Below, in pieces: positions 28,591 to 32,260 of a DNA stretch of 64,000 bases. Every line of letters begins with the position of its first letter. Position 1 is the stretch's first letter. Source of the stretch: Escherichia coli (GTDB lineage Bacteria; Pseudomonadota; Gammaproteobacteria; Enterobacterales; Enterobacteriaceae); assembly GCF_003334385.1 (NCBI RefSeq), contig NZ_QOWN01000026.1; one strand, given 5' to 3'. The position numbers and the translations under genes are program-made. The notes under the pieces were generated by a model. The model was not told the origin of the DNA and made no database searches. It was given only the letters and a program-made list of their open reading frames with translations.

Positions 28591-28928
28591 AAATTTCATC
28601 CTCTGAAAAGTGAATACTGAGTAGCGTTTAAGCGACCTTAGCTTTGCTGCAACATCAGCCCACAGGCACCAGACCAGGGGATTCATCCTGAAGAGACAGC
28701 GCAAGTGTATTGTGTTCACCGCTCATCAAAGACATCATGATGAAATGATGATATTCCGCATAAGAATGAGGCATTTTTTAAACGCAGTGCGCTGAAGTGT
28801 GGTTGGATAAAAAAGTCAATCCATTCAGGAAATACGGGCGTATTCTTTTCTTTCGACAATGAGGCCGTTGGCAAAATAAAATGATTTACATAATCGTTTC
28901 TGATGAATATCTTCTGCTCACATAAAAA

Positions 28929-29168
28929 TCACACAATAACTTTGAGATCGCAGATTGTTTTACTTTTACAGCATTCGTCCCCCCATTGTTGGGCAAATAT
29001 AGATTGGGCCAGAGCACGAAAGTTAATACCACGTTCGCACAGCTCCTCCAACAGCACGACAAGATGCCACATACTGCGCCCCAGTCGGTTCAGTTTACAG
29101 ACTAGCAGTGCGTTCCCTGCCGATGATGTCCTGACCAGTTTTTTCAGTCCGGACCTCCTGCCACGGTT
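28929..29168 (-). pseudogene. pinH: Remnant of a Pin/Hin/Gin-family serine recombinase (DNA invertase), central fragment only
   Basis: Minus-strand frame gives [53 protein letters not shown], which aligns with the recalled Pin block RPGLKRALKRLQKGDTLVVWKLDRLGRSMKHLISLVGELRERGINFRSL; no N-terminal catalytic Ser region or C-terminal HTH. Confidence 0.7.
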
Positions 29169-29501
29169 TTACGTTGAAGTGGTAACCCTGAGCACGCAGT
29201 TCTTCAGTCAGGCGTGGTGCACCGTAACGCTGTTATTGCTGGGTAAGATCAAAAAACTTTCAGGCAGCTAAGGAAAGTTGAACCAGACATTAGATGAAAT
29301 ATTTCAACCAATTACAGCACCAATTCAGTCACTGCCAGCCCACCAAATAAATCAAGGGGTTACATGAAAACGTAGCCCCTTTTTCTTTGGTAGTGACACT
29401 AAAATGGATGTAGTGTGAAGAATAATCCCGTTTACTCAATCAATAATACATATTGTTTCAATCTACGTTATTATCTCTTTGTAAAAATTGCCATTTATTA
29501 A

Positions 29502-30293
29502 TCATTGAAAACTGCTTTTAGAACTTGATACAACGGGACTAGTCACAACAGGACTATTCTCAACGGGATCATCCTCAGAGGAACTATCATCAAAGTCATC
29601 ATCCATAAATAAAATATCATCGAATGGTGCCACGCCCGTGATGAGTTTTATTTTATTATTACGATCAGTCAATACTCCACTTAAACCGTTTTCGCTCACA
29701 GGTTTTAATGATTTTTCATTACTCTTGTTGTAAGCAGGCGCATTAAAAATACACGGAGTATCAACATCAAACAATGACGTTCCCCAGTTCACATATTGAA
29801 TATCATAGTTACTGAAGTTCTGTCCAGAAAAGAAGCACCCCTTAAAATCCAATCCACGTAAATTATATAAACCACCCTCTTCTTTTTGGAGAGTAATGTT
29901 AATTTTGGCTATCTCCCGGACATCATCGCCATTTTTGTATTTGAATACCGTTTCAAGATGTTCTCCAGACAGCTTGACTTCAGGAAATAATTTGAAATCA
30001 AAGCCTATATTATTATGTGTCAACGTAGATGAACAAAAAATGGAAAAAGCTTGCAGTGCTGAATTATAGCTATCGATTTTATCTTGAGGCTGAGTTCTTG
30101 GTAAAAACTTATAGCAACACTCATAAAAATTAAACAGAAGCTCTGAAGACCTTGTATTTTTATCAAATAATACCCCCTTGAACTCATTCACAAACGCATC
30201 TTTTTTTTCTTGAATATCTATGGGGTGTTCCTTTGACTCTGACAAAGATGAAATCTCATCTATTTTGTTTTCATATGAATTACGTGATTCCAT
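29502..30293 (-). CDS. ypjB: Uncharacterized protein YpjB (acidic Ser/Asp-rich C-terminus); may be the C-terminal part of a longer ypjC-ypjB frame
   Basis: 263-aa ORF in very AT-rich DNA with no SD before its ATG; in frame with ypjC across a single TAG. Confidence 0.6.
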   Translation of the reverse strand: MESRNSYENKIDEISSLSESKEHPIDIQEKKDAFVNEFKGVLFDKNTRSSELLFNFYECCYKFLPRTQPQDKIDSYNSALQAFSIFCSSTLTHNNIGFDFKLFPEVKLSGEHLETVFKYKNGDDVREIAKINITLQKEEGGLYNLRGLDFKGCFFSGQNFSNYDIQYVNWGTSLFDVDTPCIFNAPAYNKSNEKSLKPVSENGLSGVLTDRNNKIKLITGVAPFDDILFMDDDFDDSSSEDDPVENSPVVTSPVVSSSKSSFQ

Positions 30294-30392
30294 ACAGACA
30301 TTTGGCGGCGTTTCTAAAATAACACTACGCGTACTACTTGGCTTAAGTAAACCAACATGAAAATCACTTTTTCTTATATTATCGAAAAGGTT

Positions 30393-30875
30393 CTATTCAT
30401 TTCTTTTAGCGCATTCAAAAAACTGATCGGCATTATTTTTATTCGATAATTTTTTAGTTTCAGAAAACACATTTTCATTGTTTTCTAGCTTTAGTTTAAT
30501 GAGAAGATTTTCCCAGACCTGCTTGCTTAAACATATTACGTCAGGCTCACCAGAACTAACTAACTCGTGATTATTATTAAAGTGTACGTTGAATACCTTT
30601 AAGTTATTTTCACCAACTTCATATTTAATACGTTTTAATTGTTCTCCAGCTCCCATAATGACAAAGGCGTTGCCTTCTTGATATATACATTCAGACATCA
30701 TTTTTTGTAAAGTTTCAAGAGCACCGCGATACGTCTCTGATGCAGCTTCCTTACAAATTAATTTTAAAATACTATGAGCTAGTAGCTCCATGTGTTTAGA
30801 AGATTTATTTTCATTATAACTTCCACTACCCAAAACTGCGCTAGCGTTAAATCCGTTGCTTTTACTAACTAACAT
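30393..30875 (-). CDS. ypjC: Uncharacterized protein YpjC; may be the N-terminal part of a longer ypjC-ypjB frame
   Basis: 160-aa ORF with good SD (GAGGA 8 nt upstream); terminates at TAG 30393-30395. Confidence 0.6.
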   Translation of the reverse strand: MLVSKSNGFNASAVLGSGSYNENKSSKHMELLAHSILKLICKEAASETYRGALETLQKMMSECIYQEGNAFVIMGAGEQLKRIKYEVGENNLKVFNVHFNNNHELVSSGEPDVICLSKQVWENLLIKLKLENNENVFSETKKLSNKNNADQFFECAKRNE

Positions 30876-31625
30876 TGTCTATTCCTCAATTAATGTCTAC
30901 ATGGCTATTTTTAATGTTATTACTGTTTGTCACTATAAAAAAACGCTCATTTGAGACAATTACTGACATTAACTGCTTCACTTGCTACGCATGGAACTTT
31001 TAATTAAATTAGCACAGGAATGTTAAATTTAATAAACAAAAGGTTATTTCGCTGTATGATAAAAAAAACCGTTATAATTTATTAGTGAAAATCGTTTTTC
31101 AAGTGTTAGAAATTTATATCTCAATAGCGTTGGTTAATGAGCATAGCCACGCTCCTGTAACGCTCACAAAACTCATCTGCCTGCGGCGGGTGTTCTGGTC
31201 AGTAGTAGATGTTTAAGGCGTGGCAGAGACATTTCATCCTTACTCTACGGCATTGTTCTACATACATTGGTTGTGGTACTCACTTATCATCAGTGAGCGA
31301 ACAGAGAATAGTTCAGTGATTTGAGTAATTAACCTGATTAAATGAAGGGGTATAATAAATGATAATACTCTGGCTTTATCGTTAATTACTTAATTCCACA
31401 TGTAAGCAATTTGCCCGCTTGGCATAGCAGGCATTTTTTCCAGGTACTTTTGAATGAGTACTGATGGATAAATACATTGCAGTGGCGTGCCACGTACCAA
31501 AACACCAGCCCTCATTCGAAACCACCCACCGCACTTCTTCCTTGAAATGGCGTTAGTCATGAAATATAGACCGCCATCGAGTACCCCTTGTACCCTTAAC
31601 TCTTCCTGATACGTAAATAATGATT

Positions 31626-31701
31626 TGGTGGCCCTTGCTGGACTTGAACCAGCGACCAAGCGATTATGAGTCGCCTGCTCTAACCACTGAGCTAAAGGGC
31701 C
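31626..31701 (-). tRNA. ileY: tRNA-Ile2 (anticodon CAU, lysidine-modified type reading AUA)
   Basis: 76-nt minus-strand gene GGCCCTTTAGCTCAGTGGTTAGAGCAGGCGACTCATAATCGC...GGGCCACCA with anticodon loop CT-CAT-AA. Confidence 0.9.
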
Positions 31702-32260
31702 TTGAGTGTGCAATAACAATACTTATAAACCACGCAATAAACATGATGATCATATGATGTAAATAACAGATTTTTATGCGTTCCCATTCACCTTGGGTCG
31801 TGATTACACGCGACATAAAACCCGACACCGCCTCCATTCGCAAAGTCGATACTCGCAGTCAACAAGCAAATGTTAATAATTAGCACTATCTATAGTTATC
31901 ATCGATTCAATGATACTTTGTAATGATTTTGTATCTAATAATATAACTTTATTACATTAGCTGAAGAGTTTTCGCATCATTATGATATCTGTTACTTTTC
32001 ACTCCATAAAAATAAACTTCGTATAGCAATATATTCTTTCATAGATCTTATTCTGCTAATCATTAGTTTCGTATGAGCGATTTTTGACAGTTGCCTCTCC
32101 AGACCACATCGATAATTAATAAAACAGATTTAAGCATTATCCTTTTCCATATAAATATTGGATAAAAGTAGGACATCTGTTTGCAATTACTTTCACAACA
32201 ATTAAACATTTTTATGTTTCCGTATACATCATATTACTCTACCATTAGAGGAACTTTATT

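Follow-up and report, generated by a model that had tools for sequence, protein, structure and literature searches.

Around ileY, the gene for the AUA-decoding tRNA-Ile2 (anticodon CAU), the DNA of Escherichia coli is conspicuously AT-rich, which raises the question of what kind of DNA this is and how it came to lie there. We examined the interval 28720-32260 within a window of 64,000 nucleotides from an E. coli assembly (GCF_003334385.1, contig NZ_QOWN01000026.1). All coordinates refer to this window unless another locus is named, and the features are collected in Table 1. A preliminary description had read the interval as a decayed, horizontally acquired island around the tRNA gene, containing the remnant of a Pin-type recombinase. 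Our analysis indicates that the interval is probably the AT-rich half of a 10.6-kb accessory patchwork, 24001-34649, which lies between ssrA and glaH and was assembled and then eroded in place; we put the probability of this reading at about 0.8. The patchwork would comprise ypjA, an autotransporter gene, together with a 5′ module of its own; 55 codons left over from a P2-phage-type invertase, cut on its N-terminal side beside an IS3 scrap that lacks both ends of the insertion sequence (IS); the Escherichia-only orphan gene ypjCB; ileY, as a second copy of the AUA-decoding tRNA gene; and ygaQ, predicted to encode a distant alpha-amylase-like protein. All three large genes (ypjA, ypjCB and ygaQ) are closed by TAG codons in this strain. 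Only the tRNA and a conserved block next to it are likely to work.

An accessory segment between ssrA and glaH

The limits of the segment were defined by comparison with genomes in which it is missing. Nissle 1917, a strain of phylogroup B2, is homologous to the window up to 24000 and again from 34650 onward, and carries 333 unrelated bases between these two points. The break in Escherichia sp. E1V33 is the same, and in E. whittamii homology resumes at 34705. The distance from ssrA to glaH is ∼0.7 kb in all three. Among 5,426 complete E. coli genomes, 2,859 contain at least 80% of 28000-35000, and 2,867 contain the ileY spacers. The others mostly match the tRNA alone, via ileX or the tRNA-Ile genes of prophages and plasmids; a few keep part of the spacers. 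The idea of a decayed island around a tRNA gene was therefore right in that the DNA is accessory: about half of E. coli genomes are without it, as are two other Escherichia species. The tRNA gene, however, is cargo of the segment and not a core target for insertion.

Base composition also sets the interval apart. Its GC content is 36.3%, as compared with a mean of 51.0% (standard deviation 2.8, minimum 44.9) for the 463 equal-sized windows outside 24001-34649, which bears out the initial impression that it is AT-rich relative to the flanking core genes. The low-GC tract spans ∼29250 to ∼34650, including all of ygaQ, and does not end at 32260. Taken by parts, GC content is 42.2% for the whole segment, 49.1% for ypjA and 37.2% for ygaQ. 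ypjA is thus of near-average composition and lies outside the AT-rich tract. The GC content at third codon positions (GC3) is 0.29, versus 0.59 in the core. Codon usage proved atypical as well, and the count of AUA codons that had been proposed as a check gave 12.4, 17.5 and 26.6 per 1000 codons in ypjA, ypjCB and ygaQ, respectively, as against 4.2 in the 30 core open reading frames (ORFs) of the window. AUA is therefore enriched three- to six-fold in the genes of the island.

The order of genes in the window is smpB, ssrA (the gene for transfer-messenger RNA, tmRNA), ypjA, the recombinase fragment, ypjCB, the tRNA gene, the alpha-amylase-like pseudogene and glaH-lhgO-gabDTP.

Table 1. Features of the accessory segment and its surroundings, in window coordinates.
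Feature	Position	Strand	Details
ssrA (tmRNA)	23487-23849		
Variable (accessory) segment	24001-34649		Lies between the terminator region of ssrA and the region upstream of glaH; limits are homology breaks versus Nissle 1917
ypjA (adhesin-like autotransporter YpjA/EhaD)	24010-28590	minus	Premature TAG at 27895-27897
ypjA 5′ region	28640-28975	minus	Includes a 39-codon ORF, 28655-28774 (RefSeq hypothetical protein)
Serine recombinase (DNA invertase) remnant	28998-29165	minus	55-56 codons corresponding to Gin residues 41-95; frame residues 3-57
IS3 transposase fragment	29160-29246	minus	87 bp, internal; adjoins the truncated N-terminal side of the remnant
ypjCB	29502-30875	minus	K-12 ypjB (29502-30293) and ypjC (30393-30875); one frame, one TAG at 30393-30395
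ypjCB-ileY spacer	30876-31625		37.2% GC; no credible ORF
Conserved block	31360-31532		Within the first ORF-free stretch, next to ileY; 88.8% identical to E. albertii, flanks 30-60%
ileY, tRNA-Ile2 (anticodon CAU)	31626-31701	minus	ARAGORN anticodon CAT; Rfam tRNA 73.8 bits; K-12 annotation
Divergent ileY/ygaQ promoter spacer	31702-32260		31.3% GC
ygaQ pseudogene (putative distant alpha-amylase-family protein)	32261-34513	plus	One frame; TAG at 32591, 33296 and 34100

Remnants, interrupted genes and spacers

The recombinase remnant is annotated in K-12 as pinH, with 80 codons (28929-29168), and in RefSeq as a 'recombinase family protein, missing N- and C-terminus'. Its identity as a relative of the Pin, Hin and Gin invertases withstood alignment. 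The remnant matched the Gin DNA invertase over residues 41-95 (E 6e-12), the Pfam Resolvase profile (PF00239) over positions 48-103 of 145 (E 4e-9), and the invertases of P2-like phages such as Fels-2 (68-72% identity, E 2e-15). The alignment begins at Gin residue 41 and ends at residue 95 of 193; the catalytic serine (around residue 9-10), the E-helix and the helix-turn-helix (HTH) are absent from the remnant, in agreement with the preliminary description, which had found neither a catalytic N-terminus nor an HTH. Its length was overstated, however, as only 55 of the 80 codons are invertase-like. The last ∼24 codons of annotated pinH (28929-28997) enter a paralogue of the ymgJ/ycgI region, and the frame upstream of the remnant runs through stop codons into IS3 sequence. 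The latter is 88-91% identical at the nucleotide level to IS3 copies and falls inside the transposase coding sequence of the IS3 on plasmid F. It is an internal piece only, for which no IS3 ends, terminal inverted repeats or target-site duplication were found. Together, the IS3 piece upstream and the ymgJ-type paralogue downstream explain the truncation of the remnant. The proposed search for gix-type inverted repeats and a full-length relative yielded neither: no gix- or hix-type repeats were present in 23400-35000, and there was no closer full-length recombinase among the sampled E. coli matches. The remnant is, by all appearances, a dead fragment, which would have neither activity nor target sites.

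The sequence between this scrap and ypjA has a different affiliation. Across most E. coli genomes, the ymgJ locus is 87% identical to nucleotides 28720-28975, the pairwise alignment having a mean column identity of 93%; the ymgJ region is itself situated upstream of an autotransporter remnant close to minE. Because it is paralogous to the ymgJ region of another autotransporter, we assigned this stretch to the 5′ module of ypjA. The similarity suggests a putative 5′ regulatory module shared within the ypjA-type autotransporter family.

Each of the three large genes is interrupted. In ypjA, the codon that is TAG in the window is CAG in both K-12 and strain 1303, so that ypjA appears to be a pseudogene in this strain only. 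In the preliminary description ypjB and ypjC figured as two orphan genes. Both are present and are orphans, but they constitute a single gene, ypjCB, that is split by one TAG, and RefSeq likewise treats them jointly as a ypjCB pseudogene. Intact versions exist: an O157-like strain carries an allele of 449 amino acids, and alleles of 457 amino acids are common in the protein database. In ygaQ, the positions of the three TAG codons are occupied by TGG (Trp) in an intact E. coli allele (L091) and by Trp in the E. albertii protein. All five premature stops (27895, 30393, 32591, 33296 and 34100) are amber, and in each a CAG or TGG codon has undergone a G:C to A:T transition. In ypjCB the stop stands in place of CAG, and suppression of the supE type would therefore bring back the wild-type residue.

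Neither YpjCB nor YgaQ has a wide distribution. YpjCB matched the Pfam profiles DUF5507 and DUF5508 and the NCBIfam profile Ecoli_YpjCB (952 bits). All 120 relatives listed are at least 86% identical to it, and their named sources are E. coli and one unnamed Enterobacteriaceae isolate. A search of 1.84 billion representative proteins returned 43 hits, almost all of which were fragments of the same family. The lone outlier, a PA14-repeat protein aligned to residues 296-359 (E 3.8e-4), is a lead and not a result; residues ∼335-365 of YpjCB appear to resemble the start of a PA14 domain. YpjCB is thus restricted to Escherichia. For ypjC, a published study describes a phenotype in biofilm colonisation (PMC3646849). 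Within E. coli the alleles of ypjCB are unusually diverged, with 77-95% protein identity and a nucleotide diversity of up to 19% per 90-bp window. AlphaFold2 failed to predict the fold of YpjCB from an alignment of 17 sequences (mean predicted local distance difference test score, pLDDT, of 37.2), and a possible role as a defence gene was rejected, as PADLOC gave no match. The YgaQ family is confined to E. coli and E. albertii. The intact E. albertii YgaQ gave weak hits to the Pfam profiles Alpha-amylase (E 3.9e-4) and Alpha-amylase_C (E 2.6e-4), and its NCBIfam matches were sub-threshold only.

The two AT-rich stretches on either side of ileY, described at the outset as free of ORFs, are essentially so. 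The longest ORF in the spacers is one of 109 codons that starts with TTG and overlaps the tRNA gene, and reading in six frames revealed no gene remnants in either spacer. According to genomic systematic evolution of ligands by exponential enrichment (SELEX) in K-12, both the ypjC-ileY and the ileY-ygaQ spacers contain H-NS sites and RpoD promoters (PMC3946193), and ileY and ypjC were enriched in Hha pull-downs in the same strain (PMC2408971). The published promoter hexamers (PMC3946193) mapped to 31937-31910 on the minus strand for ileY and to 31896-31924 on the plus strand for ygaQ; those published for ypjC were not located in 30800-32400. The spacers contain six promoter-like sites, as compared with 6.1 ± 2.5 in shuffled sequences, and thus have no excess of them. 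If the K-12 data apply, H-NS and Hha would coat this AT-rich DNA and hold its transcription low.

ileY and the origin of the segment

The tRNA gene named in the preliminary description was recovered by both ARAGORN and Rfam, and ileY is, as far as its sequence can tell, a functional-looking tRNA. A single compensatory pair in the acceptor stem, U6:A67 in place of C6:G67, sets it apart from ileX. In K-12, lysidine at position 34 (introduced by TilS) and charging with isoleucine are established for the products of both genes. ileX is located between nfeF and mug and is present in all 5,426 genomes, ∼47% of which are without ileY. ileX is thus the universal copy, and ileY an accessory second copy carried as cargo of the 10.6-kb segment, where it would add AUA-decoding gene dosage on top of ileX. 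Two variants of ileY were observed. In the O157-like allele (L006 9628-9703), paired changes in the anticodon stem keep the pairing. The E. albertii gene (L013 6599-6674) shares C6:G67 with ileX and has C where T54 is normally invariant.

Other strains carry integrative elements at this tRNA gene. Ten proviral contigs of IMG/VR hold ileY-adjacent sequence, and five of the ten lose homology at 31671/31672, inside the tRNA gene. One provirus (L099 513-6560) encodes a tyrosine integrase, an Icd-like protein and a P4-type primase beside its junction inside ileY. Elements carrying the ter operon have been reported to insert at the tRNA between ypjC and ygaQ (PMC8193136). In strains other than this one, P4-like integrative elements still make use of ileY as an attachment site.

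E. albertii has a tRNA(CAU) gene and an intact ygaQ homologue beside glaH, in the same position and orientation as in E. coli. The ygaQ sequences of the two species are 67.5% identical in DNA and 59% in protein, as against 86.3% at four-fold sites of the adjacent core. Beyond the tRNA, the E. albertii DNA contains unrelated AT-rich ORFs (34-40% GC) in place of ypjCB, pinH′ and ypjA (L013 1-6200). One of them encodes a protein of 362 residues that combines proline-rich repeats with a GDGNCLYHA motif like that of OTU proteases (Pfam OTU, E 0.045); in these respects the protein seems to resemble a secreted effector. In Citrobacter, Salmonella, Pseudocitrobacter and the other genera scanned, no tRNA or tmRNA gene was found in up to 10 kb upstream of glaH. 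The segment is thus old, mosaic and more diverged than neutral orthologous DNA would be.

We considered two other accounts of how this DNA arose. One is that the interval is what remains of a single coherent element, for example a P2-like prophage with a tail-fibre-switching invertase or an invertible switch controlling ypjA. The affinity of the scrap to P2-like phage invertases such as that of Fels-2 and its location ∼400 bp upstream of ypjA would both fit, but no further phage gene is present and gix- or hix-like inverted repeats are lacking nearby. Moreover, the stretch between the scrap and ypjA, as a paralogue of the upstream region of another autotransporter, belongs to ypjA and not to a switch; the other flank of the scrap is an IS3 fragment; and the sampled E. 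coli matches include no closer full-length copy. A single element is thus very improbable. The second account, that of ancestral Escherichia DNA, deserves more weight. ileY-ygaQ would have stood beside glaH in the common ancestor, would have been deleted in phylogroup B2, E. whittamii and others, and would have drifted towards AT without constraint. This is consistent with the place and orientation of the tRNA(CAU) gene and intact ygaQ homologue in E. albertii, with the lack of att-type repeats around the segment, with the fact that all five nonsense codons are G:C to A:T transitions, and with the deletion of ileY in strains W and B (PMC3032704). By contrast, the two versions of ygaQ are more diverged than neutral orthologues should be, E. 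albertii has wholly different cargo beyond ileY, and the DNA upstream of glaH in the other genera is devoid of tRNA and tmRNA genes. YpjCB and YgaQ have no relatives outside Escherichia, and the segment contains phage and IS scraps. Ancestral DNA is accordingly a possible source, but the evidence makes it the doubtful one.

A further question is why ileY is retained. The preliminary description held it plausible that the tRNA is kept by selection because the genes of the island are rich in AUA. These genes are indeed enriched in AUA, as given above, copies of tRNA-Ile(CAU) also occur on prophages and plasmids beside AT-rich cargo, and in K-12 additional ileY counteracts the toxicity of Hha and allows fimbriation again (PMC2408971). 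However, ypjA, ypjCB and ygaQ are all TAG-interrupted in this strain and the tRNA is nonetheless intact; K-12 has the same stops in ypjCB and ygaQ. Strains W and B have even lost ileY, through IS-mediated deletions (PMC3032704). The broken cargo, the universal presence of ileX, the absence of ileY from about half of the genomes and the losses in W and B make selection for the island's genes a weak explanation, and we consider it unlikely. A benefit, if there is one, would more plausibly arise through AUA-rich genes at other places in the genome.

Assembly and erosion in place, which we prefer, is itself opposed by several observations. With respect to the marks of a genomic island, strain-variable presence and atypical composition and codon usage were found, and an integrase and att repeats belonging to the segment were not. 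The survey of ORFs detected no integrase gene in the segment, only the recombinase and IS scraps, and neither flanking direct repeats nor a duplicated 3′ end of a tRNA or tmRNA gene mark its limits. The left edge lies ∼150 bp beyond ssrA and not within it. Given this edge and the lack of repeats, a classical integrase insertion is at most a candidate mechanism. E. albertii has ileY-ygaQ at the same position, and part of the segment may predate E. coli, in which case the 'empty' genomes would be deletions. Because ypjCB and ygaQ are intact in many strains, 'decayed' applies to this lineage and not to the whole family. Finally, the evidence of H-NS binding comes from the K-12 literature and not from this strain. 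The old horizontally acquired element of the preliminary description thus survives in part: its accessory presence, atypical composition and mobile-element scars stand, but the unit, which may have been either gained or inherited, is 24001-34649 and not 28720-32260.

A conserved block beside ileY, and comparison with known systems

Apart from the tRNA, one block within the first ORF-free stretch (Table 1) appears to be the only part of the island with core-like similarity between E. coli and E. albertii. On the minus strand, that of ileY, the block is predicted to fold into a long hairpin (∼31445-31526) and two short hairpins, with a free energy of −56.6 kcal/mol and a z score of −3.4; the z score of the plus strand is −0.7. 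The E. albertii sequence forms an almost perfect palindrome, and there the two strands both fold well. Among eight distinct sequences of the block, 13 stem pairs vary on one side with pairing kept, and 99.3% of alignment cells pair on the minus strand, as compared with 84.1% on the plus strand. All stem substitutions but three preserve pairing on the minus strand. No covariation was detected among these eight sequences, as there was no pair with changes in both partners; the shuffled control gave no information either way. The plus strand has features of its own: a conserved GATAAT (31361-31366) followed by a fully conserved stretch of 45 bases, and a hairpin (31417-31436) followed by six T (to 31443), which looks like an intrinsic terminator. 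Published Term-seq supplements place a Rho-dependent end just after ileY, at window position 31598 on the minus strand, and an 'orphan' Rho-dependent end at 31511 on the plus strand (10.1101/2020.07.18.207399).

Searches with the block returned nothing beyond this locus. A scan of 22000-36000 against Rfam 15, with E values up to 1, yielded only the tmRNA and the tRNA, plus chance overlaps on those two. No second copy of the block was found in phages, genuine plasmids or the loci analysed; the only three matches in the plasmid collection were E. coli records of 4.8-4.9 Mb, in which the match is at this same locus. A coding function was rejected: a 77-residue frame on the minus strand downstream of ileY has nine replacement and three silent changes relative to E. 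albertii, and its matches are from E. coli only.

We tentatively propose that the block is a functional, undescribed RNA element, while judging the odds to be against it. Two forms are possible. The block could be a structured 3′ trailer of the ileY transcript, as suggested by the far greater stability of the long hairpin on the ileY strand and by the preservation of pairing there by nearly all stem substitutions. Alternatively, it could specify a convergent small RNA of ∼70 nt that would extend from the GATAAT to the putative terminator hairpin and its six U (31417-31443). Against a functional RNA stands the overall identity of the block, which is close to that of the core four-fold sites (86.3%), so that it could be ordinary orthologous DNA left between replaced flanks. 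If the element is real, it would be a small addition to the catalogue of E. coli RNAs and might illustrate how a regulatory RNA can be linked to a rare-codon tRNA. The block is the sole item at this locus that merits a follow-up experiment. The ileY-ygaQ spacer contains another, lower peak of E. coli-E. albertii similarity (∼78-82%) at 32016-32093, which may represent a candidate regulatory site for ygaQ or ileY.

The closest known system is the locus of K-12 itself. There, pinH′-ypjB-ypjC-ileY-ygaQ′ (b2648-b2652, b4462) lies downstream of the cryptic prophage CP4-57, with the same genes in the same order; pinH and ygaQ are labelled pseudogenes. The gene order of the window agrees with that of strain 1303 and, except for CP4-57, with that of K-12 MG1655, from which the window differs by 10 substitutions in 10.7 kb. 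K-12 shares with the window the TAG in ypjCB and all three TAG codons in ygaQ. By contrast, the window lacks CP4-57 at ssrA, as does strain 1303, and has an extra nonsense codon in ypjA. In 23850-24010, ypjA follows the tmRNA gene directly, with no CP4-57 between them, and strain 1303 is alike. In 24000-34700, the window has seven substitutions found neither in K-12 nor in strain 1303, each of them a transition. For 28000-35000, there was no identical complete genome among the best matches, the best being 99.9%. The features listed in the preliminary description are standard K-12 annotation, and nearly all of the locus has already been annotated or published, including its genes, the binding of H-NS and Hha, ileY as an insertion site and the loss of ileY in some strains. 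What the present analysis clarifies is the true limits of the variable segment, the destruction of the invertase with an IS3 scrap at the break, the nature of ypjB and ypjC as a single amber-interrupted gene that is intact elsewhere, and the status of ileY as cargo and not a core gene.

Other comparisons concern parts of the segment. The remnant shares with the Gin/Hin/Pin/Cin invertases the KL(D/N)RLGRS motif, within the part aligned to Gin residues 41-95, but unlike them it lacks residues 1-40, the E-helix, the HTH and recombination sites. The AT-rich parts of the segment, at 31-37% GC in a genome of 51% GC, are like the DNA subject to xenogeneic silencing by H-NS and Hha, with occupancy known from K-12 data only. 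Unlike tRNA-associated islands, the segment has no integrase or att repeats of its own, and its tRNA gene lies in the middle and not at an edge. It nevertheless resembles such islands and the mobile rare-codon tRNAs, for example ileZ-argN-argO of lambdoid prophages, in which an AUA-decoding tRNA likewise occurs in AT-rich, AUA-rich accessory DNA, and the ileY of the window shares its U6:A67 pair with a prophage ileZ.

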